Below are positions 44,469 to 58,863 of a stretch of 64,000 nucleotides of DNA, in pieces (within the stretch, counting starts at the first letter, position 1; every line of letters starts with the position of its first letter). The translations under genes were made by a program, and so were the position numbers. Source of the stretch: an uncultured Acidobacteriota bacterium (GTDB lineage Bacteria; Acidobacteriota; Terriglobia; UBA7540); contig CAWDSK010000003.1 of the NCBI GenBank assembly GCA_963804995.1, positions 256,001-320,000 on the forward strand, in the 5' to 3' direction. Under the pieces are notes generated by a model, which was not told the origin of the DNA, ran no database searches, and saw only the letters and a program-made list of their open reading frames with translations.

Positions 44469-44764
44469 TCCGGATATTTCAGCAGTGAGGGAAACCGTGG
44501 GCCTCTGAGCCCGCCCTTCCAAACCCGTGGTGAGAAATCTGTCCCTCCTCGCGATCCAGAGGTGTGAATCGCTTCTTAAATGTGCGAGTTGGTGGCATCG
44601 GACGGCCTCTGAATACCCGCTTCAACTTCTTGCCTATCGTTAATACAACCGCAACCTGGCATAGGTTCTTGTGACATTGCTCGTTGGGATAATTGCCGGA
44701 AACGGATCCGCGTGGTAGTATAACCGCTCTCCAAATTGAAGGTGATTTCCGGTTGAGTGAAGGT

Positions 44765-45640
44765 ATGTCGTCTACATCCCCGCAGAAGTTGGATTCCCAG
44801 ACACCCCGCGAGCTCGAGCTGAAGCTGGCGCACAGTCCGGACTCTGACGACGCTTTTATGTTCTATGGCCTCGCGACCAAGAAACTGCGGACGGGCAACC
44901 TGCTCTTCACGCACACGCTTGAGGACATTGAATCCCTGAACCAGAAAGCGATGGAGGGCGTTTACGACATCACTGCAATCTCTTTCCACGCCTACCCCTA
45001 TCTCGCCGACCGTTACATTTTGCTCCCCTCCGGCGCGAGCTTCGGCGAGCGCTATGGACCTATTGTGGTGGCGCGTGCCACGCTGGGAACAGAAGGCTTG
45101 CGTGGTAAGCGCGTGGCGGTGCCAGGGAAAATGACTACCGCTCATCTGGTGCTGCAGCTCTATGAGCGTGAATTTGAGGCCATTTTCACCCCCTTCGATC
45201 AGGTCCTGGAAGCTGTCAACCGGGGTGAGGCGGATGCCGGGGTGATCATCCACGAAGGCCAGTTGACGTACGCCGAATCCGGGCTGCAAAAGATTGTGGA
45301 TTTGGGCGAATGGTGGCACCAGGAAACAGGTTTGCCGCTTCCGCTCGGTGGAAATGCCATCCGCCGCTCGCTTGACCACCGTACCTTGCGCGCGGCCGCT
45401 AGGTTGTTGAAGGAAAGCATTCAATACTCGCTCGATCATCGCGAAGAAGCCCTTAACTATGCCCTGCAGTTCGCCCGCGGGCTCGATTCCCCCACGGCCG
45501 ACCGCTTCGTGGCCATGTACGTCAACGATTGGACGCTCGATTACGGTGAGCGCGGCCGCCAGGCGGTACAAACGCTCCTTGACCGTGGTTACGAAAAGGG
45601 AATCCTGCCTCAGCACGTAAAGGCGGAATTTGTGGAATAA
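44765..45640 (+). CDS. mqnD: 1,4-dihydroxy-6-naphthoate synthase (futalosine pathway)
   Basis: [34 protein letters not shown]...LPLPLG and MYVN. Confidence 0.88.
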
Positions 45641-45754
45641 CCCCGCCGCCTGCCCTGCGCGGTTCAGGCGAGGAATTATTCGGCCGCTGGCCAGCAGCTT
45701 GATCCAAACGTAGCACCGCAAAACCCAAACTTTTGACGACGAGAGGAATCTGCC

Positions 45755-46558
45755 ATGCCGGACAAGTATCGCTATGAAGAATTCACTTGGCCGGAGATTC
45801 GCGAGGCGGTGGCGGAGAATCGCGTGGCCGTCCTCCCGGTGGGTACCATCGAACAACATGGCGTGCACCTGCCACTGGTCACTGACGTGCTGACTTCCAC
45901 CGAGGTCGCCCGGCGGGCGGTCGAGCAAGTGCCCCACGAGGCCGTCCTGATGCCGTCGGTCTATTATTCCTTCAACATTCACCATATGGATTTTCCCGGC
46001 ACCATCGCCATCGACGGGCCGAATATCATTGGCTATGTGACCGATATCGGCAAAAGCTTGGCCTACCATGGTTTCCGCAAAATCCTCCTGGTCAACGGAC
46101 ACGGCAGTAATGTTCCCTTTCTCGACATCGCGGCTCGGAACATCGCAAACACGACCGAGGCGATCTGTGGCATGATTTCCTGGTGGAGCTTGATCCCTCC
46201 CCAGCTTTTTCGAGAGTTGCGGGAATCGGAGATCCCTGGGGGCATGGCGCACGCTTGTGAACTTGAAACCTCCGTGTTGCTCTATTTGCGCGGCGACTTG
46301 GTGCAATTCGAAAAGGCGGAGAAAGAAATCAACCTGCCGCCTAACTCCGAGTTCTTCTTCTGGGATTTCGAGACGCCCTCGCGGCTGGTTTTTCAAGAAT
46401 GGGCCAGCCGGAATTCGAAGACCGGAACCTTCGGCGATCCCACCAAGGCCACGCGTGAGAAGGGCGAGAAGTTCGTGAACGCCGCAGTGGAAAGAATGCT
46501 GGTCTTGCTCCGGGAACTGCGAGCGCGCCCGATTCCTCCGCGCGTGGACCATCACTAG
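45755..46558 (+). CDS. Creatininase/amidohydrolase family protein
   Basis: PVGTIEQHGVHLP..D, NGHGSN, HACELETS and GTFGDP. Confidence 0.9.
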   Translation: MPDKYRYEEFTWPEIREAVAENRVAVLPVGTIEQHGVHLPLVTDVLTSTEVARRAVEQVPHEAVLMPSVYYSFNIHHMDFPGTIAIDGPNIIGYVTDIGKSLAYHGFRKILLVNGHGSNVPFLDIAARNIANTTEAICGMISWWSLIPPQLFRELRESEIPGGMAHACELETSVLLYLRGDLVQFEKAEKEINLPPNSEFFFWDFETPSRLVFQEWASRNSKTGTFGDPTKATREKGEKFVNAAVERMLVLLRELRARPIPPRVDHH

Positions 46559-48934: not shown

Positions 48935-51277
48935 ATGAAGGCGACGGCCGCACGGCTCCGGCTCACCCTAGGAATGGTTTTCGTGGCTCTCCTGGCCTCA
49001 ACCTCGCTCTCGGCGCAGAGCAACACCGGAGAGCTGCGCCTGAAGATGACCGACCCTGCCGGGCTGGGGGTCGAGAGCACGGTCGAGTTGACCAGCGACT
49101 CGAACCAGGTGCGGCGGACGCTCACGACAGACGACGCAGGGAACGCCGTGGCCAAGTTGCTGCCCTTTGGGATCTACAGAATCCGCGTCGCGCCACCGGG
49201 ATTTGCGCCCTTCTCGCAATCGCTGGAGATTCGTACCGCCCTCCCCACTTCCTTCCGCATCAAACTCGACCTGGCCACGGTGAGCGCTTCCGTGGTCGTT
49301 AAAGACGCGGATACGCTGATTGATCCCCACGCCACGGGCACGATCGAGCGCATTGGTTCCGACACGCTTCGCGACCGGCTGACTTCCCTGCCGGGCCGCT
49401 CGCTCGTTGACTTGGTGAATTCCGAACCGGGCTGGCTATACGAAGGCAACGCGGTTCTGCATCCGCGCGGCTCCGAATACCAGACTCAGTTCGTGGTGGA
49501 CGGAATTCCGCTCACGGACAATCGCTCGCCAAGCTTCGGGCCTGAACTCGAAGCCGACGACGTGGAATCGATAAGCATTTACACCGCCAACATCCCGGCC
49601 GAATACGGAAGGAAAATGGGCGGCGTAGTGGAGGTGAACACGACGAACGACTCACGCCCGGGGTTCCACGGAAAAGTGGTGGGGGCGGGCGGCAGCTTCG
49701 ACACTGCGGATGGCTACGGGCAGGCGCAGTATGCCTGGGGCGAGAATACGTTGGGAGTAAGCGCCTCAGGCGCCACCACCCATCGGTATCTGAACCCTCC
49801 GGTCGTCGAAAATTATACGAATGCGGGCACGACCTCAGATTTCGGGGCGCACTACGAGCGGGATTTGACGGATCGCGACCGCTTCAATGCGATTCTTCGG
49901 CATGAACAGGTGGGATTCGAAATCCCCAATGAGCAAGTCCAGCAGGCCGCGGGGCAGCGGCAAGATCGCTCGAATGACGAGACGATGGGAGTCTTGAGTT
50001 ATGAGCACATCTTCTCCCCCAGTGTTTTGGGGGATCTCCGGGCGATGGTGAGGTCGGACGACAACCGCCTTTGGTCGAACCCCTTCGCGACGCCCATCCT
50101 CGCCGGGCAGGAGCGAGGCTTGCGGGAAGGCTATTTCAAAGCCAGCGTGGCGGTACACCACGGCCGTCACGAGTGGAAAACCGGCATCGAGGCGGACTTC
50201 GCGTATCTTCACGAACAGTTCAGCGACACCCTAACTGACCCCACCCAATTTGACCCCGGAACGCCCCCAAAATTCAACTTCTTCGGCCGCGGAAACGATC
50301 TCGAACAATCCTTTTTCGTACAGGACCTCATCCGTCTGGGCGCATGGACCCTAAGCGCGGGCCTGCGATGGGATCACTATCAACTGTTAGTGAACCGGAA
50401 CGCGCTGAGCCCGCGGCTAGGAATCGCTCGCTATTGGGAAAAGGCCAAACTGGTTCTGCACGCTTCCTATGACCGAGTCTTCCAAACGCCGGCTTTTGAG
50501 AATATTCTTCTCTCCAGCTCTCCCGAAGTTGCCGTTCTGAACCCCAACGTCCTGCGGCTGCCCGTCGAGCCCTCACAGGGTAATTACTACGAGGCCGGGC
50601 TTAGCAAGGGCTTCTTCGGAAAATTCAAGCTGGACGCCAACGCTTTCGAGAGGCGGGTGAGCAACTTTGCCGACGATGACGTGCTGCTGAATACCGGTGT
50701 CAGTTTTCCCATCGCCTTCCGCAAAGCCGCTATTTACGGGGCCGAAGGGAAGCTCGATTTCCCCCGCTGGGGGCGGCTCTCCGGGTACACCAGCTATTCG
50801 TATCTGGTGGGCGCCGCCTATCTGCCGGTAACCGGCGGGCTCTTCCTGGGAACGGACTCAACCGATGCGCTCAGCGCAACTACCGGCCGGTTCTGGATTT
50901 CCCAAGACCAACGCCACAGCGTGCGCACCAGGTTTCGATATCAACTGAAGCCGCGACTGTGGGCGGCCCTGGGTGGCGAGTATGGGAGCGGTCTGCCCGT
51001 GGCATTCGATGGCACGGAGCAGCAAGCCATCGCCCAGTACGGCTCGGAGATTGTGGACCGCGTGAACCTGGCCGACGGCCGCGTGAAGCCGTCGCTCTCC
51101 GTCAACGCCTCTATGGGCGCTGACCTCTGGAAGAGTGAGCGCCTGACGATGCGGGTGCAAGCGGACGCGGAGAATCTGAACAACCGACTCAACGTGATCA
51201 ATTTCGCTGGCCTCTTTTCTGGAAACGCCGTGGCGCCCCCCCGCAGCGGGACAATTCGCCTTACTGCCGATTTTTAG
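48935..51277 (+). CDS. TonB-dependent receptor with N-terminal carboxypeptidase-regulatory-like domain
   Basis: Signal peptide; plug VDGIP...PAEYG...GGVV; LSAGLRWD and LSPRLG; C-terminal Phe; start position uncertain. Confidence 0.88.
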   Translation: MKATAARLRLTLGMVFVALLASTSLSAQSNTGELRLKMTDPAGLGVESTVELTSDSNQVRRTLTTDDAGNAVAKLLPFGIYRIRVAPPGFAPFSQSLEIRTALPTSFRIKLDLATVSASVVVKDADTLIDPHATGTIERIGSDTLRDRLTSLPGRSLVDLVNSEPGWLYEGNAVLHPRGSEYQTQFVVDGIPLTDNRSPSFGPELEADDVESISIYTANIPAEYGRKMGGVVEVNTTNDSRPGFHGKVVGAGGSFDTADGYGQAQYAWGENTLGVSASGATTHRYLNPPVVENYTNAGTTSDFGAHYERDLTDRDRFNAILRHEQVGFEIPNEQVQQAAGQRQDRSNDETMGVLSYEHIFSPSVLGDLRAMVRSDDNRLWSNPFATPILAGQERGLREGYFKASVAVHHGRHEWKTGIEADFAYLHEQFSDTLTDPTQFDPGTPPKFNFFGRGNDLEQSFFVQDLIRLGAWTLSAGLRWDHYQLLVNRNALSPRLGIARYWEKAKLVLHASYDRVFQTPAFENILLSSSPEVAVLNPNVLRLPVEPSQGNYYEAGLSKGFFGKFKLDANAFERRVSNFADDDVLLNTGVSFPIAFRKAAIYGAEGKLDFPRWGRLSGYTSYSYLVGAAYLPVTGGLFLGTDSTDALSATTGRFWISQDQRHSVRTRFRYQLKPRLWAALGGEYGSGLPVAFDGTEQQAIAQYGSEIVDRVNLADGRVKPSLSVNASMGADLWKSERLTMRVQADAENLNNRLNVINFAGLFSGNAVAPPRSGTIRLTADF

Positions 51278-51464
51278 GCGCTGCCATCAAGGCCCTTGCT
51301 ACCGTCGGGTGGGTAGTCGGTCAGTTTGAATCCGCAAGCCGGGTGGTTCGTTTGTGACGCATACATACAAGGCAATGTATGCGACCCCCCGAAAGGCGGA
51401 TTTACTCCGCCATATGGCGAGGTAAACTCGCCGCTACGGCAAACAGCCCTGCCCCCCGACCCAG

Positions 51465-51574
51465 GGTATTGGTTCAGTTTGGTTGTTTGTAGCGGCGGTC
51501 TATGACCGCCGACTTTTTAATTCAATAAGTTCCGGCGCTCATAGAGCGCCGCTACAGCAAACTGCACAACTACC
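51465..51574. mobile_element. 110-bp MITE with GGTA-type ends and REP doublet cargo
   Basis: GGTATTGGTTCAGTTTG...CAAACTGCACAACTACC; exact 8-bp TSD CGACCCAG at 51457-51464 and 51575-51582. Confidence 0.78.
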
Positions 51575-51589
51575 CGACCCAGCTTGGGG

Positions 51590-51618
51590 TTGACATTTTG
51601 CCGCATGCACCTTATGCT
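51590..51618 (+). promoter_or_regulatory. Sigma70 promoter of the reductase operon
   Basis: TTGACA-17-TATGCT. Confidence 0.75.
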
Positions 51619-51630
51619 TTTATTTTGCTG

Positions 51631-51708
51631 ATGCGTACCCCCTTCCAACCCGGCATGGCCATGTGCTGTTGTACGGTGCCAGCGCCGACGTGTGGGGAAC
51701 GTGCTTAG
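51631..51708 (+). CDS. Cys/Met-rich attenuator leader peptide (25 aa)
   Basis: MRTPFQPGMAMCCCTVPAPTCGERA*, between the promoter and a terminator, upstream of the reductase. Confidence 0.75.
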   Translation: MRTPFQPGMAMCCCTVPAPTCGERA

Positions 51709-51736
51709 CCACCAGCTAGCCTAAGGATCTAATTCC

Positions 51737-51781
51737 AACCCACCGCCGGACGCAAGTCGAGCGGTGGGTTTTTTGTTTTTT
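51737..51781 (+). terminator. Attenuator intrinsic terminator
   Basis: AACCCACCGC / GCGGTGGGTT stem with GAC-GCAA-GTC cap, followed by a T-rich tract ending 14 nt before the ATG. Confidence 0.85.
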
Positions 51782-51795
51782 GGAGAGCACTGGGA

Positions 51796-54051
51796 ATGAA
51801 AGCTTCGAATTCACTTTGGAAGGAACGCCTCGCCGGCAAGATGCCGGAGGCCCTCGCCCACGAGGTTGACAACTTCGAGTCGGACATTGGTCTGAGGAAG
51901 CAAGGCAAACTCAACGAGCGCCTTTTTGCTGAAACGCGTTTGCGCAGAGGGGCCTACGGGCAGCGCTACGACAACGGTCAGCGGCACGATGGCAAGAAGG
52001 TCCAGGAGTTCGCCTACCCCACCGGCGGTTTAACCAAAGGCCCCCATACCCTGTGGGACGCCCCGGGGATGCAGCGCATTAAGATTCCAGGCGGCGGCCT
52101 GAATGCCTCGCAGCTTGAAACCTTGGCGGACTTGGCCGAGGAGTACTCGGACGGAATCGCGCACATCACCACCCGCCAGGACGTGCAGCTTCACTACGTT
52201 CACATCGACGACACTCCCTCCTTGATGCGCCGCCTGGCCGCGGCCACCATCACGACGCGCGAGGCCTGCGGGAACTCGGTGCGCAACGTTACCGCGTGCC
52301 CCTATGCAGGCGTTTGCCCGGATGAAGTCTTCGACGTCACCCCCTACTCCCTTGCGCTTTCTAGGTTCCTGCTGGGCCATCCGGATTGCCAGAGCTTTGG
52401 CCGGAAATTCAAGCCCTCCTTCAGCGGGTGCGCGCAGCACGCATGCGGCCTCGCCAACATGCACGACATGGGATTGGTAGCCGTCACGCGCACTGAGAAC
52501 GGCAAGCAGGTGCGGGGCTTTGCTCTGTACGTGGGCGGCGGCCTGGGCACGGTTCCTTACCAGGCAAAACTGTTCGACGCATTTCTGCCGCCGGAAGAAC
52601 TGCTACCCATCGGGCAAGCCATCGCCAGGGTCTTTGCAAGGCTGGGCGAGAAGAAGAATCGCAATCGGGCCCGGATTAAGTTCTTAATCCACGATTTGGG
52701 TATCGAGAAATTCAAGGAGCTGGTTTGGGAGGAGCGCAAGACGCTGCCTCCCGATCCGCGCTGGACGGAATTCCTCGAAACCCTGGAAACCTTCAAGGAA
52801 GAGCCGTTGCGCCCGCCCGGAGAGGCACACCCGCCGGGGTCAGAGGACTTCGAGCGCTGGCGCGCTTCGAACGTGCGGCCACAAAAACAGGATGGCTACT
52901 CAACCGTCACGGTGACCCTCCCCCTGGGGGACATCACCGCCAATCAACTCCGCTCGCTCGCCGATATCGTGCGCCGCTTTACGCGCGAGACGGTGCGGAC
53001 AACCGTGGAACAGAATTTCGTCATTCGCTGGGTCAGCAACGCCGATTTGCAGGACATCCACGAAGCCTTGACCGCCGCGGGCTTGGGACAGCCGGGCGCC
53101 GGAACCATCGTGGATATCGTATCCTGCCCCGGAACGGACACGTGCAAGCTGGGAATCTCCTCGTCACGTGGCCTTGCCTCGGAACTGCGGAAGCGGCTCG
53201 CCCAGAAAAGCTTTGAGCTGGACGAGGCGGTCAACAATCTGCACATCAAAGTCAGCGGCTGCTTCAACAGTTGCGGCCAGCACCACGTAGCGGACCTGGG
53301 TTTCTACGGTGTCAGCCGCAAAATGGCGGGTTACGCGGTGCCGCACTTCCAGGTAGTCCTGGGAGGAGAATGGGATAACAACGCCGGCTCGTACGGGCTG
53401 CCCATTGTGGCGATCCCGTCCAAGAACATACCGGAAGTTGTGGCCCGCTTGACCGATCGCTATGTAGCGATGCGGAAGAATGGCGAAAGCTTCAAGGATT
53501 TTGCCAAGCGAATCGGGAAAGCGGAAATCAAGAATCTGCTGGAGGATCTTACCCGGATACCCACCGAGGAAACCGAGCGTTCGTTCTTCAGCGACTGGGG
53601 CGATCCACGTGAATACAGCTTGGGTGATTTGGGGGTCGGTGAATGCGCCGGCGAAGTTGTGTCCGCTATCGAATTCGACCTGGCGGCTGCAGAAAGAGAA
53701 GTCTTTGAAGCGCAGTTGGACTTGGAAAAAGGCCATTTTGAGCCGGCAGCCAGGACTGCCTACCTGGCTATGCTTCATGCGGCCAAAGCGTTGGTCAAGC
53801 TGGAACTCCGAGACATCTCAGATGATCCAGACCAGATCGTTCAGGAATTCACTGCCCGATTCTATGACACGCAGAAATTCTTCGATTCCTTCGCAGGAGG
53901 AAAATTCGCGCAATACTTGTTCGCAGCCCATCAAGCGTCAGGCAAGCCCGTGAGTCCGGACTCAGCACGCTACCTGATCGACGAGGCACAACTGTTTATT
54001 GACGCCTCACACGCCTGCTATAACCGCTTGGGAGCCGCCGTAGTTGCGTAG
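51796..54051 (+). CDS. sir: Siroheme sulfite/nitrite reductase with C-terminal HEPN-like extension
   Basis: ITTRQDVQ, ACGNSVRN, RKFK, CPGTDTC and SGCFNSCGQH; the Cys leader favours sulfite as substrate. Confidence 0.88.
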   Translation: MKASNSLWKERLAGKMPEALAHEVDNFESDIGLRKQGKLNERLFAETRLRRGAYGQRYDNGQRHDGKKVQEFAYPTGGLTKGPHTLWDAPGMQRIKIPGGGLNASQLETLADLAEEYSDGIAHITTRQDVQLHYVHIDDTPSLMRRLAAATITTREACGNSVRNVTACPYAGVCPDEVFDVTPYSLALSRFLLGHPDCQSFGRKFKPSFSGCAQHACGLANMHDMGLVAVTRTENGKQVRGFALYVGGGLGTVPYQAKLFDAFLPPEELLPIGQAIARVFARLGEKKNRNRARIKFLIHDLGIEKFKELVWEERKTLPPDPRWTEFLETLETFKEEPLRPPGEAHPPGSEDFERWRASNVRPQKQDGYSTVTVTLPLGDITANQLRSLADIVRRFTRETVRTTVEQNFVIRWVSNADLQDIHEALTAAGLGQPGAGTIVDIVSCPGTDTCKLGISSSRGLASELRKRLAQKSFELDEAVNNLHIKVSGCFNSCGQHHVADLGFYGVSRKMAGYAVPHFQVVLGGEWDNNAGSYGLPIVAIPSKNIPEVVARLTDRYVAMRKNGESFKDFAKRIGKAEIKNLLEDLTRIPTEETERSFFSDWGDPREYSLGDLGVGECAGEVVSAIEFDLAAAEREVFEAQLDLEKGHFEPAARTAYLAMLHAAKALVKLELRDISDDPDQIVQEFTARFYDTQKFFDSFAGGKFAQYLFAAHQASGKPVSPDSARYLIDEAQLFIDASHACYNRLGAAVVA

Positions 54052-54150
54052 AGGAAGAGATTCGGGTCACAGATCGAGCCCTGGAAGCCCAAATGGGATC
54101 GAGTTTCGAATTTCGAGTTTCGATTTTCGTCTTTTAGAGGATTGCATCGC

Positions 54151-54753
54151 ATGGAACTTCAGCACGTCAACGTTAAACTCCTAATGAAGAATCTGGAGGA
54201 ACATGACCTCAACCCCTTGATTCCGGTCTTTCATAGCTGGATCCAGGATCAGGGCCGCGGCGAGCTTCTGATTGATGTTGCCGATTACCGGCATGTCCCG
54301 GCGGGGCCGGGTGTGGTGTTAATCGGACACGAAGCCAATTACAGCCTCGATAACACCGGCGGGCGCTGGGGGGTTCGATACAATCGCAAGGCTGTGCTGG
54401 AAGGAACTAACCAGGATCGGCTGACGCAAGCCGCACAGGCGGCCCTTGCTGCTTGCCAGCGCCTCGAAACGGACCCGCGCCTGAATGGGAAGATTCGGTT
54501 TGAGGGCCGGGAGATCGAGGTGTTCATAAACGACCGCCTACTGGCCCCGAATACGGAAGAAACCCGCGCCGCGGCTGAGCCTGAGTTCCGTCCCTTTTTC
54601 TCGCGCTTATTTGGAAGCGTTGAATTTGATCTTGTTTACCCCCAAGACCCCCGCAGCTTATTCTCAGTTAGGGCAACGGCGTCCCAACCCGTTAGCACAC
54701 TGACTTTGCTAAACAACTTGTATTCGCTCGCCTCCGTGGCCGATCGAAATTAA
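54151..54753 (+). CDS. Hypothetical protein, probably co-transcribed with the reductase
   Basis: 200-aa ORF; IPVFHSWIQ, LIDVADYRHVPAGPGVVLIGHE and INDRLLAPNT; GAGG RBS. Confidence 0.8.
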   Translation: MELQHVNVKLLMKNLEEHDLNPLIPVFHSWIQDQGRGELLIDVADYRHVPAGPGVVLIGHEANYSLDNTGGRWGVRYNRKAVLEGTNQDRLTQAAQAALAACQRLETDPRLNGKIRFEGREIEVFINDRLLAPNTEETRAAAEPEFRPFFSRLFGSVEFDLVYPQDPRSLFSVRATASQPVSTLTLLNNLYSLASVADRN

Positions 54754-54856
54754 ATTGAACTATTCACCGCTCGCCTCCCACATCCGGATTGGGTCCGGCC
54801 CCCCACCGCAGGGATGCTATACTTTATAAGTTTACGGCCACTTTTTCGGAGCCCTT

Positions 54857-55687
54857 ATGCACGATATCTGTGTGTGGACCGCCCTGGCGTTATACGGCCT
54901 GGGAATTTTGCTGATCATTCCATCCGTCAAGCGACGCCGCCCCTCGCTCTCCCCCGCGTCATTAGGAGCGCTAGGGCTGGGTCTAGTTGCCCACGCCGCG
55001 GCCTTAGCAACTGTAGTCGCACGCATTCATCGTCTGCCGGTCACCGACGTGCGCAGCGCTTTGTCGTTTTACGCATTCATGGTGACTCTTGCCTTCTTCT
55101 TCGTCTACTTGCGCTACCGGATTGTTTCGCTCGGACTCTTCATGCTGCCGCTGGTTTTCCTGCTGACGCTCACCTCCGCACTGCGCCCCGAAGGGTCCTT
55201 TGATTCATCGGCGTTTCGTGGTGGCTGGCTGCTGGTGCATATCTGTTCGATATTTCTTGGCTACACGGCATTCTTTCTAACCTTTGTCGCGTCCGTCATG
55301 TACCTGATTCAGGAGCGAGAGCTGAAATCACGGCAGCCGCGTGGATTTTATTACCGGCTGCCCTCGCTCGAAGTCTGCGACGAGATCTATTACCGCTCGC
55401 TGGTGTTGGGACTTCCCTTCTTGAGTTTGGGAATTCTAACGGGCTTTGTGTGGGCCAGCCGGACGTGGAAAGGCCCCTGGGAACTTGACCCGAAAATTCT
55501 CGCCTCAATGGTGACTTGGCTCATCTACCTTGTGCTCTTTTCCACAAGAGTCAGCGGCGTCTGGCGAGGGCGGCGCGCTGCGTACCTTGCTATTTTCGGA
55601 TTCGCCGCCATCCTGGTGACCTTCATGGGAATCAGCGTGCTAAGCGGACAGCACGGGTATATCCCCAAGCTGGGGTCTGGGGGCTAG
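54857..55687 (+). CDS. ccsA: Cytochrome c assembly protein (CcsA/HemX-like)
   Basis: WLLVH, YLIQERELK and GFVWA...WELDPK; directly upstream of hemA. Confidence 0.85.
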   Translation: MHDICVWTALALYGLGILLIIPSVKRRRPSLSPASLGALGLGLVAHAAALATVVARIHRLPVTDVRSALSFYAFMVTLAFFFVYLRYRIVSLGLFMLPLVFLLTLTSALRPEGSFDSSAFRGGWLLVHICSIFLGYTAFFLTFVASVMYLIQERELKSRQPRGFYYRLPSLEVCDEIYYRSLVLGLPFLSLGILTGFVWASRTWKGPWELDPKILASMVTWLIYLVLFSTRVSGVWRGRRAAYLAIFGFAAILVTFMGISVLSGQHGYIPKLGSGG

Positions 55688-55707
55688 GGGCTGGGCACTG
55701 GGAAATT

Positions 55708-56973
55708 ATGAACTTGACGCTGTTGGGCATCAATCATCGCACGGCGCCGGTGGAGATCCGGGAGAGGATGAACATCCCGGAAGCACGCCTGGCTGAAGCC
55801 GTCTCTGATTTGGTGCACCGAACGGGCATTCGCGAAGGGATGATTCTTTCCACCTGCAACCGCGTGGAGGTGATGACCTCCGCGGAAGACGACGTGGATG
55901 CAGAGACGATTATCCGCGGCTTCCTGGCCGATCATCACCACTGTGACCTGACGCACTTCGCCCACTTCTTCTATCGCCTGCGCCAGCAGGACGTGGTGCG
56001 CCACCTCTTTCGCGTGGCCTCCAGTTTGGATTCTATGATCCTCGGCGAGCCACAAATCCTGGGACAGATGAAGCAGGCGTACTCTGTGGCGCGCGCCGTA
56101 GGTGGACTGCACGGCGCCTTGAACGAGGTGGTCGACCAGGCGCTGGCGGTGGCGCGGCGGGTGCGTCGCGAAACGGCTTTGGGGTCCGCGGCAGTATCGG
56201 TCTCCTACGCGGCAGTGGAACTGGCCAAAAAAATCTTCGGCAGCCTTGCGGGCAAAACCATCTTCGTGGTGGGGGCGGGCAAGATGAGTGAGCTCGCCGC
56301 CAAACACCTGCTGCGCAGCGGCGCCAGCAGCATTCTGGTCAGCAATCGCACCTACGACCGGGCTGTGGAACTGGCCGCCGCTTTTCACGGGACAGCGGTG
56401 CCGTTTGAAGAACTCTTCGACCATCTCGGCCAAGCGGACATCGTCATCAGCTCAACTGGCGCGCCCAATACAATCATCAGCAAGGCGCAAGTTGAAAAGA
56501 TCCTATCCGCGCGCCGCAATCGACCGGTGTTTTTCGTGGACATCGCCGTACCACGTGACATCGATCCCGCCGTCAATGAACTGGATAATGCTTTTGTTTA
56601 TGATATCGATGACCTGGGCCACGTTGTCGAAGCCAATAAGAAACAGCGCGAGCAAGAGGCGGTGTGGGCCGAGGACATTGTCCAAACCGAAGTGCAGAAG
56701 ACTATGAAACGCCTGGCGTCACGCGATGTGGTGCCCACCATCGTGGCCCTGGAAGGACGCCTGAACCGCATTCGCGAAAGCGAAATGGACCGCTACCAGG
56801 GCCGCCTGGGGAACCTTTCGCCCGAGCAGCGCCAGGCCGTCGAGGCGCTGACCCGCGGCATCCTGAACAAAATTCTGCACGGGCCCATCACCGAGCTCAA
56901 GAGCGGCGTGGGTGAACCGGAGCACGTGGCGCTGGTGCGGTTGATTCATAAAATTTTCGGGTTGGAGGAATAA
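55708..56973 (+). CDS. hemA: Glutamyl-tRNA reductase
   Basis: GINHRTAPVEIRE, LSTCNRVE, SLDSMILGEPQILGQ, GAGKM and DIAVPRDI. Confidence 0.97.
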   Translation: MNLTLLGINHRTAPVEIRERMNIPEARLAEAVSDLVHRTGIREGMILSTCNRVEVMTSAEDDVDAETIIRGFLADHHHCDLTHFAHFFYRLRQQDVVRHLFRVASSLDSMILGEPQILGQMKQAYSVARAVGGLHGALNEVVDQALAVARRVRRETALGSAAVSVSYAAVELAKKIFGSLAGKTIFVVGAGKMSELAAKHLLRSGASSILVSNRTYDRAVELAAAFHGTAVPFEELFDHLGQADIVISSTGAPNTIISKAQVEKILSARRNRPVFFVDIAVPRDIDPAVNELDNAFVYDIDDLGHVVEANKKQREQEAVWAEDIVQTEVQKTMKRLASRDVVPTIVALEGRLNRIRESEMDRYQGRLGNLSPEQRQAVEALTRGILNKILHGPITELKSGVGEPEHVALVRLIHKIFGLEE

Positions 56974-57032
56974 GCTCGCGGATGAGCTACGCCGAATGCT
57001 CAATTCGCTGCGGCGCAGACTCGGCTGATTGC

Positions 57033-57061
57033 TCGTCACTTGTCACTCGTCACTGGTCACT
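57033..57061 (+). repeat. Heptamer tandem repeat (NGTCACT)x4
   Basis: CGTCACT TGTCACT CGTCACT GGTCACT between hemA and hemC. Confidence 0.7.
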
Positions 57062-57069
57062 GTTTTGTT

Positions 57070-58020
57070 ATGAAACTTACCATCGGCTCACGCGGCTCTA
57101 AACTCGCGCTTTGGCAGGCCCAATGGGTCCGCGACCAGCTTACGGCCAAGGGCTTCGAGGTGGAGGTCCGCATCATCAAGACCACAGGCGACAAACTTCA
57201 AGCTTTCGCCCCCAACGAGTCCTTGCCGGCGTCGATCGCCGAGACGGTGGCGCAGGTTGGAAGCAAAGGTATGTTCATCAAGGAAATCGAAGAAGCACTG
57301 CTGGCTGGAGAAATTGATGTGGCCGTGCACAGCCTGAAAGATCTCCCCACCGAGCCGCCCGCCGGTCTCGTGCTCGGCGCGGTACCACAGCGTGAGGACG
57401 CTCGCGATGTCTTCATCTCGCGGAACGACCAGACCCTTGCGGCTCTCGCACCGGGCGCGCGGGTCGGAACCAGCAGCTTGCGCCGCCAGACTCAATTGTG
57501 TTCCTTGCGGCCCGACCTCACTTTCGAAGCGATGCGAGGCAATCTCGATACTCGCCTGCGGAAACTCGAACGTGGCGATGCGCAGGCACTGGTACTGGCC
57601 GCGGCGGGCGTGCACCGACTGGGCCTGGCCGGGCACATCACGGCGTACTTCTCCTTTGAGCAGATGTGTCCGGCCGTGGGCCAGGGCGCACTGGGCATAG
57701 AGATTCGAGCTGATGACCCGAAGGCGCGCGAAGCCGTCGAGCCGCTTGATCATGTATCGACACATCAGGCCGTGCGCGCGGAGCGTGCTGTGCTGCGCCG
57801 CCTGGGCGGCGGTTGTCAGGTGCCCATTGCCGCGCACGCGGTTTCAGAAGATAGCCAACTGCACTTGCGCGGGTTGGTTGCTAACCTGGACGGAACGCGA
57901 GTCATACGCGCGCAGGCCGTTGGCGCCGCCTCCGATCCCGAGGCGCTGGGCACGGCGGCGGCCGAAGACCTGCTGCAACAGGGCGCTCGGGATATTCTCA
58001 ACTCGATTGGCCAGGCGTAA
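57070..58020 (+). CDS. hemC: Hydroxymethylbilane synthase
   Basis: GSRGSKLALWQA, AVHSLKD, GTSSLRR, RGNLDTRL and GGCQVPI. Confidence 0.97.
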   Translation: MKLTIGSRGSKLALWQAQWVRDQLTAKGFEVEVRIIKTTGDKLQAFAPNESLPASIAETVAQVGSKGMFIKEIEEALLAGEIDVAVHSLKDLPTEPPAGLVLGAVPQREDARDVFISRNDQTLAALAPGARVGTSSLRRQTQLCSLRPDLTFEAMRGNLDTRLRKLERGDAQALVLAAAGVHRLGLAGHITAYFSFEQMCPAVGQGALGIEIRADDPKAREAVEPLDHVSTHQAVRAERAVLRRLGGGCQVPIAAHAVSEDSQLHLRGLVANLDGTRVIRAQAVGAASDPEALGTAAAEDLLQQGARDILNSIGQA

Positions 58021-58035
58021 GACCTTGCTCCTATC

Positions 58036-58863
58036 GTGATGGGTGTAGATATGGGGTCGCACAATCACGTGCATTCGCCCGAGCACCTGCCACTTTCCGG
58101 CAGGCGCATTGCCATCACCCGCGCCCGCGACCAGGCCAGCGTGCTGCGCGAAGAGCTTGCGGCAATGGGCGCGGAAGTAATTGAAATTCCGACGATTGAA
58201 ATTCGACCGCCTGATTCATGGGAGCCGCTCAACGCCGCGATTAGCAAGCTTGATAAATTTGATTACCTGCTGGTGACCTCCGCGAATGGGGTGCGAAACT
58301 TCCTGGCGCGCCTTGCAGCGTGCGGGCGAGACGTGGGGGATCTGAGGGGCCTGACCATCGGCGCCATCGGCCCTGCTACGGCGGCGGAATTCTCACGTGC
58401 AGGCGTGAAAGTGGATTTGCTGCCGCGCGAGTACGTGGCTGAGGGGTTGCTCGCGGCGCTCGGCGACCGCGACTTGCGTGGTAAAGCATTCCTCATTCCA
58501 CGCGCGCGGGTGGCGCGAGACGTGGTGCCGCGCGTGCTCGAGGAGCGGGGCGCCCGGGTGGAAGTCGTGGAAGCCTACCAGACGGTCGCCCCTGAAATCT
58601 CCCCGCAGGAACTCACGCTCCTGCTCACGCCGCCACCGGACGCCATCACCTTCACCAGTTCGTCTACTGCGATAAACTTTGCGAAGCTCGTGGGCGAAGG
58701 CCGGCTCGTGGAAACGCTGCGCGGAACAGCTATCGCCTCCATCGGCCCGGTCACCTCCGGAACCCTCGGCAAGCTTGGCCTCACGGTAAACCTCGAAGCG
58801 CAAGAATCCACAATGGCGGGACTAGTAGAGGCAATTCAAGGATACTTTTCCAAAAACTGTTAG
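58036..58863 (+). CDS. hemD: Uroporphyrinogen-III synthase
   Basis: ITRARDQA, TSANGV, AIGPATA, FTSSST and SIGPVT. Confidence 0.93.
   Translation: MMGVDMGSHNHVHSPEHLPLSGRRIAITRARDQASVLREELAAMGAEVIEIPTIEIRPPDSWEPLNAAISKLDKFDYLLVTSANGVRNFLARLAACGRDVGDLRGLTIGAIGPATAAEFSRAGVKVDLLPREYVAEGLLAALGDRDLRGKAFLIPRARVARDVVPRVLEERGARVEVVEAYQTVAPEISPQELTLLLTPPPDAITFTSSSTAINFAKLVGEGRLVETLRGTAIASIGPVTSGTLGKLGLTVNLEAQESTMAGLVEAIQGYFSKNC

Follow-up and report, generated by a model that had tools for sequence, protein, structure and literature searches.

The leader of the reductase gene at positions 51796–54051 (+) of a 64,000-nt stretch of DNA from an uncultured Acidobacteriota bacterium (GCA_963804995.1, contig CAWDSK010000003.1, positions 256,001 to 320,000 of the forward strand; hereafter the window) is predicted to be a kinetic, co-transcriptional and ribosome-mediated attenuator which reads charged tRNA-Cys. 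The probability of this reading was estimated at about 0.85. The leader contains a short open reading frame (ORF) with a run of Cys codons, an intrinsic terminator and an antiterminator. The prediction is based on this anatomy, on its conservation in related genomes, on the gene context and on the covariation of the antiterminator.

A predicted sigma-70-type promoter (51590–51618, +) was identified in a hexamer scan. It consists of the −35 hexamer TTGACA (51590–51595, +) and the −10 hexamer TATGCT (51613–51618, +) with a spacer length of 17 nt, and the pair scores 10 out of 12. Both hexamers are located where an earlier note on this DNA, made from the letters alone, had placed them. One promoter-like site was observed in 1.2 kb whereas 0.5 are expected from shuffled sequences, which makes the hexamers weak as sole evidence for a promoter. 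The 5′ end of the leader mRNA would be located near 51625, about 5 nt before the leader ATG. This ATG (51631) is found 12 nt past the −10 hexamer and starts an ORF of 25 codons (51631–51708, +) ending with the stop codon TAG (51706–51708). The putative control codons are the three tandem Cys codons 12 to 14 (TGC TGT TGT; 51664–51672, +), and a fourth Cys is encoded by codon 21. The ORF reads as given in the earlier note, which had described it as lacking a ribosome binding site (RBS). A Shine-Dalgarno (SD) site is indeed missing, but according to the sequence and the ortholog comparison the ORF is near-leaderless and not only devoid of an RBS.

Downstream of the ORF, an intrinsic terminator hairpin with a U tract (3:4; 51737–51781, +) was detected by a shuffle test, folding and pair counts. 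Its stem (51737–51746/51761–51770) has a free energy of −24.3 kcal/mol and is followed by T6-G-T6, in agreement with the strong terminator reported by the earlier note just before the reductase ATG. A simple terminator scan missed this hairpin because the loop limit of the scan was 3–8 nt. The SD-like sequence GGAG of the reductase gene (51782–51785, +) follows directly. The whole leader was found to be more stable than 199 of 200 shuffled sequences (z −2.95).

The 5′ strand of the antiterminator, segment 2 (51682–51696, +), covers codons 18–22 and begins 9 nt past the last Cys codon of the run; it was delimited by folding, duplex energies and covariation. Segment 3 (51737–51753, +; folding and covariation) is common to the antiterminator and the terminator. 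The antiterminator helix between the two segments has a duplex energy of −20.9 kcal/mol and shares positions 51737–51746 with the terminator, the two being mutually exclusive. A third hairpin, the predicted anti-antiterminator (1:2; 51627–51708, +; −31.5 kcal/mol by folding), spans the ORF. All three helices of the competing 1:2/2:3/3:4 layout postulated in the earlier note appear in the folding models, and the 2:3 helix covaries. For the pairing that it had suggested between 51692–51701 and 51733–51743, a 5-bp core is real (−8.4 kcal/mol), whereas the predicted antiterminator is the longer helix 51682–51696/51737–51753, and its extension beyond the core is the part that covaries. The 9-mer repeat that it had seen in two places of the leader is present at 51643–51651 and 51733–51741.

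For the analysis of conservation, 30 ortholog loci were collected from 61 related genomes. Intact upstream DNA was available for 26 of them (none in L016, L027 and L028, and cut in L015), and the window's own locus was excluded from the counts. Ortholog terminators were read from the DNA and the fold results. Twenty of the 25 ortholog loci carry both a Cys-run ORF and a U-tract terminator. All 14 loci of the genus are among them, as are loci from other families of the class; this agrees with the expectation of the earlier note that orthologous leaders keep the Cys run. At one locus (L029), the Cys ORF and the hairpin are present and the U tract is missing. Neither leader nor terminator was found upstream of the reductase at three loci of family f4 (L024–L026). 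A further set of 18 regions preceding reductase genes contained 12 with a Cys-run ORF, and a terminator is visible in 11 of these (L167 is cut off); five regions lack a Cys-run ORF and one lies at a contig edge.

Some of these loci showed peculiarities of their own. The leader at L023 (G038, a 2.2-Mb genome) is decayed and encodes CYCY in place of the Cys run, with no stop codon before an intact terminator. The three f4 loci have a common near-palindrome TTGC-N7-GCAA before a −10-like site, which is exact in L025 and L026 and is possibly a protein operator in the place of the attenuator. Longer leaders with two Cys clusters and a different terminator sequence are located before reductase paralogues in family f3 (L166 and L167).

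Covariation was analyzed in an alignment of 49 leaders, chosen by the author from a set of 130 and related in sequence. Ten of the 13 antiterminator pairs vary on both sides (51 cells compared to 21.3 in shuffled alignments; reached in 0 of 500 shuffles), and one pair occurs as C-G in 22 sequences and as U-A in 18. The covariation score of the antiterminator was 0.227, compared to 0.05–0.09 for slid partners. The covarying stems which the earlier note had named as a check are thus present. For the terminator, 8 of 11 pairs vary on both sides, which is partly the case by construction. In addition, duplex energies (L065 and L166 excluded) show that segment 2 prefers its own terminator arm to foreign ones in 108 of 121 leaders or, counted by distinct arm types, in 43 of 52. 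The 5′ part of the leader stabilizes more than shuffled sequences (z < −1) in 97 of the 130 leaders, with a family median z of −1.88.

Next to the static structures, the position of the ribosome was modeled. A ribosome footprint was placed at successive positions of a nascent RNA that lacks the 3′ arm of the terminator; this truncated RNA was used since in the full leader the terminator always wins at equilibrium, which is likewise the case for E. coli trpL. In the window leader, the predicted probability (P) that the terminator arm is bound to segment 2 is 0.87 with the ribosome up to codon 13–14 and 0.00 from codon 20 onwards. Masking of the Cys region, as suggested in the earlier note, also resulted in a stable antiterminator (P 0.87). 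For the 121 leaders analyzed (nine ortholog loci on the minus strand were not in this set), P exceeds 0.5 in 114 with the ribosome at the last Cys codon and in 7 with the ribosome at the stop codon. In the same scan, P dropped from 0.71 to 0.03 for E. coli trpL (NC_000913.3) and from 1.00 to 0.00 for the genome's own his leader.

The start of the leader ORF was further examined in the 130 leaders. In 88 of them, TTGAC is located 33–43 nt upstream of the leader ATG, and in 83 of these 88 the −10 hexamer ends 4–13 nt before the ATG. An SD-like word before the leader ATG was found in 3 of the 88 leaders, while 62 of the 130 have one within 45 nt 3′ of the terminator. Because the −10 hexamer is close to the ATG and SD-like words are rare, the leader ORFs of the Cys family are inferred to be leaderless or nearly leaderless. 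Their length ranges between 11 and 37 codons with 3 to 11 Cys codons per leader, often arranged as CxC or CCxCC. The leader peptide is conserved solely in the Cys and the segment-2 codons; at the positions before the Cys run, the commonest residue accounts for about one quarter or less. At one locus (L156), the ORF ends one codon after seven Cys codons and segment 2 persists outside the ORF.

The Cys codons of the leaders comprise 529 TGT and 249 TGC (68% TGT), compared to 958 TGT and 2,706 TGC (26% TGT) in the long ORFs of three contigs of the genome. Among 23 close relatives, the second codon of the run is TGT in all 23 and the third in 22. Both tRNA-Cys genes of the genome have the anticodon GCA; the leaders therefore prefer the Cys codon that is read by wobble pairing. 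A sensor of starvation would agree with this preference, but a role in RNA structure could also account for it. Segment 2 uses CCG for Pro in 20 of 23 close relatives, whereas the Pro two codons earlier is encoded by CCA or CCC.

A motif scan of species-representative genomes for three Cys codons, 52–82 nt and a terminator core resulted in at least 120 stretches. Although the pattern required no start and no stop codon, 100 of the 120 matches listed contain both, with the ATG in frame within 25 codons and the stop ahead of the hairpin. Of the 80 titled matches listed, 61 of 62 from Acidobacteriota (the assignment being the author's count) were positive, compared to 3 of 18 others, two of which are labelled Eisenbacteria and one Ignavibacteria. 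Since the scan detects only leaders with such a terminator core, it is no measure of other phyla. Among the listed positives with long flanks, 61 of 64 precede sulfur or thiol genes: NIR_SIR reductases (39), rhodanese-type sulfurtransferases (12, one of them with a broken frame and assigned by eye), cysK-family genes (4), 1-Cys peroxiredoxins (3), and one each of a PAPS-reductase-domain protein, an ATP sulfurylase and SBP56. The remaining three precede genes for an unassigned protein, a short-chain dehydrogenase and a TonB receptor. Outside the Acidobacteriota, Cys leaders were seen in an Eisenbacteria-labelled record, where an unassigned gene of 389 aa follows (L042), and in Ignavibacteria before cysK (L063).

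In the host genome (7.55 Mb), 2 of 78 small ATG ORFs with Cys-Cys-Cys have a terminator, and both precede sulfur-assimilation genes, which speaks against a chance arrangement. The second module is located on contig C2 (minus strand, about 95040–94840; L151:2372–2523) before a TauE/SafE gene and cysH (PAPS-reductase family). It has three Cys codons, an antiterminator sequence of its own and a terminator. Strict and loose scans of the genome revealed no further Cys module apart from one unconvincing match (C3 minus, 636815). The module is proposed to control tauE-cysH as well as sulfur and thiol genes, the cysD/cysH family among them, across the Acidobacteriota, which would constitute a cysteine regulon read by the ribosome.

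The genome scan for other amino acids gave no convincing trp, phe, tyr or met leader; leu, ilv and thr were not searched for. Candidates for Trp (14) and Phe (1) leaders were rejected as chance-like, and the one Trp candidate that was checked sits inside a gene. A His attenuator with a near-leaderless 24-codon ORF, a His run, an antiterminator and a terminator was observed before hisI-hisG-hisD (C2 minus, 750119; L152). Furthermore, the gene for cysteinyl-tRNA synthetase shifts frame at about 180506 of contig C5, which is probably an assembly indel.

From these observations we infer translation of the leader, stalling and termination as follows. Transcription would start near 51625, and the ribosome would load at the AUG, roughly 5 nt downstream of this start. 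Given ample Cys-tRNA, it would pass codons 12–14, cover segment 2 (codons 18–22) and reach the stop codon; with segment 2 covered, the 3:4 hairpin would form and transcription would end near 51775. If Cys-tRNA is scarce, the ribosome would wait on Cys12–14, segment 2 could pair with segment 3 before the 3′ arm of the terminator is made, and with the antiterminator formed the polymerase would read into the reductase operon. The same reading, in which stalling at the Cys codons leads to the antiterminator, had been given in the earlier note, and its computational part is supported by the ortholog leaders, the masked fold and the covariation.

This arrangement is similar to E. coli trpL and to hisL of Salmonella and E. 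coli, which likewise combine a codon run for the end product with an intrinsic terminator before the first gene, and whose 1:2/2:3/3:4 helices are predicted here as well. The features of a classical attenuator found here are an ORF with control codons, a terminator, an exclusive and covarying antiterminator and, in the model and with a weak shuffle control, the ribosome spacing. The ribosome-position profile of trpL is the same as that of the acidobacterial Cys leaders. In contrast to trpL and hisL, the amino acid is cysteine, the start is near the predicted 5′ end without an SD sequence, the targets are sulfur assimilation and thiol enzymes, and there is no sequence likeness; moreover, the Cys module is known from sequence and models.

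For Rhodobacterales, a uORF with tandem Cys codons, stems and a U run upstream of cysS (uORFC-8-2) was described with predicted stalling and read-through (Brewer et al., 2021; PMC8632094). It is described as exclusive to the cysS of this order and has two Cys codons with dominant UGC, a rare third helix and no covariation reported there (PMC8632094). By description, the acidobacterial module is set apart by at least three Cys codons, dominant UGU, a covarying antiterminator and biosynthetic as well as redox targets. It precedes a NIR_SIR gene, and no Cys ORF was found before the host cysS. In mycobacteria, leaderless polyCys small ORFs exert translational control at several unlinked cysteine loci in parallel, termed a ‘ribulon’ (Canestrari et al.; 10.1101/834739). 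These polyCys ORFs are located at the 5′ end of the mRNA, which is close to the position predicted here. In the dissected case, the downstream SD sequence is hidden and transcription termination was ruled out as the mode of action (10.1101/834739), whereas the predicted output of the acidobacterial module is an intrinsic terminator and its Cys tract pairs with the downstream SD sequence in no fold. The mycobacterial precedent cited in the earlier note is thus known but acts on translation. For Actinobacteria, leaders with Cys runs were predicted before cys operons, with no conserved terminator hairpins described and Rho suggested instead (Seliverstov et al., 2005; PMC1262725).

No acidobacterial Cys attenuator was found in the literature, in a search that is sparse in subscription papers, e.g., of the Lyubetsky group. 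This includes PMC13236596, PMC4833913, PMC2965389 and PMC8079986; none of the terms sought occurs in the main text of PMC11109978, while its supplements, which were outside the search, may hold such a motif. The earlier note had known of no description for an acidobacterial sulfite reductase, but Cys transcription attenuation had been predicted before in another phylum (PMC8632094), which makes the finding less surprising than assumed there.

Several results weigh against the proposed attenuator. When segment 2 was shuffled (mononucleotide shuffle), the mean P was still 0.53 and 71 of 121 leaders remained above 0.5. The raw probabilities thus owe much to G-richness, and because of this poor discrimination the shuffle test was replaced by the comparison of cognate and foreign duplex energies and by pair counts. 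For the full transcript at equilibrium, the terminator has a P of 1.00 at every ribosome position, and the switch must therefore be kinetic. The antiterminator of E. coli trpL is likewise low under these conditions (0.04), whereas the his leader reaches 1.00 and needs no kinetics. Without a ribosome, the 1:2 hairpin (0.35–0.37) and the 2:3 helix (0.39–0.49) are about equal in the nascent RNA at equilibrium, and in the model a ribosome held up at codon 21, the fourth Cys, would favor termination. The antiterminator of the window contains an A–C mismatch (51688/51746), and its lower five pairs are poorly kept beyond close relatives (unpaired in 27 and 30 of 49 sequences at two positions). The conservation of the terminator is partly built into the search pattern, and the relatedness of the sequences, of which the 49 aligned were chosen by the author, inflates the covariation and the arm-pairing counts. 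Furthermore, the host homologues of cysK, sat and cysS have no Cys leader within about 450 nt, and the reductase scores below every curated NCBIfam cut-off.

Other explanations were considered for the same features. The signal could be the nascent Cys-rich peptide, sensed in the exit tunnel in response to thiol-reactive compounds, metals or sulfur species, and not, or not only, the charging of tRNA-Cys. The high number of Cys residues and their CxC and CCxCC patterns would suit such an arrest, as would the presence of leaders before 1-Cys peroxiredoxin genes at three loci and before SBP56 at one. However, conservation ahead of the run is confined to Cys, the TGT bias is a signal at the codon and not the peptide level, and the short ORF of L156, which leaves segment 2 outside, is difficult to reconcile with it; sensing of the peptide is considered unlikely. 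A wider idea, in which the module is a portable cassette of the whole phylum and the Cys-rich chain additionally arrests the ribosome upon thiol, metal or sulfur modification, acting as a combined supply-and-redox sensor, is likewise regarded as unlikely. A very small probability is assigned to control of translation, with a hidden reductase RBS and the hairpin and U tract being secondary. It is the mode of the closest tested precedent (10.1101/834739), and the predicted SD accessibility increases from 0.24–0.39 to 0.63 with a forced antiterminator, which would allow for a minor second layer of this type. Against it, the Cys segment pairs with the SD sequence in no fold, relatives whose next gene begins a further 50 to about 150 nt downstream keep the hairpin and U tract, and segment 2 covaries with the terminator arm.

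It is still less probable that the product of the ORF is a small Cys-rich peptide with a function of its own, such as a metal binder or a RiPP precursor, made from a short constitutive RNA, with a terminator that merely ends this RNA and limits read-through. The Cys content is high and the unit has its own promoter and terminator, but conservation is limited to Cys, codons are fixed at the nucleotide level, the length varies from 11 to 37 codons, no modifying enzyme was detected among the neighbours scanned, and 61 of the 64 listed loci precede sulfur genes. Sulfur genes are often controlled by S-adenosylmethionine (SAM) riboswitches or T-boxes, as is generally known; nevertheless, an RNA that binds a metabolite or tRNA, or a chance arrangement, has a negligible probability here, as the conserved features are the in-frame Cys run, the start and the stop. 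A search of 50800–52300 against Rfam, down to an E-value of 10, gave 11 weak matches, none near the gathering score, none of a T-box or SAM family and none to uORFC-8-2.

The reductase, a 751-aa protein of the siroheme/[4Fe-4S] type, was classified by profile and structure comparison. It has two NIR_SIR and two ferredoxin-like half domains, which is the layout of the assimilatory sulfite reductases SirA/NirA. The best solved relative is M. tuberculosis NirA (PDB 1zj8; E 6e-55, residues 92–573), which we take to reduce sulfite, the entry being titled probable nitrite reductase. Compared to NirA, the protein of the window is longer by about 90 residues at the N-terminus and 170 at the C-terminus, and the C-terminal extension (window 53560–54051) gave a weak HEPN match (E 8e-4) below the cut-off. 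No second NIR_SIR gene was detected in the host genome (92% complete), which also has two ATP-sulfurylase (sat) homologues, several cysK-family homologues and cysH, and sulfite is therefore the likely substrate. The Cys leader also supports sulfite over nitrite. The most probable role of the enzyme is that of an assimilatory sulfite reductase in the synthesis of cysteine, in agreement with the name used in the earlier note, with the substrate deduced from the context.

Directly 3′ of the reductase, in nearly all ortholog loci, a conserved protein of about 200 aa is encoded (54151–54753, +). It belongs to no Pfam or NCBIfam family, its Atlas matches are hypothetical clusters only, and it is probably co-regulated with the reductase. 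A ccsA-like gene, hemA, hemC and hemD (54857–58863, +; profile search) follow, the latter for tetrapyrrole/siroheme precursors. No consensus promoter or terminator was found in 53900–55000 between the reductase and the ccsA-like gene. Upstream of the promoter, a cluster of inverted repeats (window 51400–51570), presumably REP-like, separates it from a TonB receptor gene; for parts of it, BLAST gave up to about 145 matches within the genome. An ordinary arrangement of a menaquinone-biosynthesis (PF02621) gene beside a creatininase-family gene and an MFS transporter gene was seen at 44693–46558.

Cysteine synthesis is a textbook pathway under the control of proteins, T-boxes or riboswitches and not of leader peptides. 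The module described here appears to be real and is well supported by comparison. The predicted mechanism is the textbook one, combined here with an unusual amino acid, a probably near-leaderless start and a phylum-wide reach. The only dissected polyCys leader acts on translation, and the sole terminator-type Cys leader found in print is the prediction for cysS. The family would therefore offer a testable terminator-type Cys attenuator on the biosynthetic pathway itself, in which the antiterminator covaries and translation would begin at the very start of the transcript. Furthermore, the leader may serve as a label for genes by which rhodanese, peroxiredoxin, SBP56, TauE and the 200-aa protein are tied to cysteine supply, and the module would explain the control of sulfate assimilation in an abundant but little-studied soil phylum.

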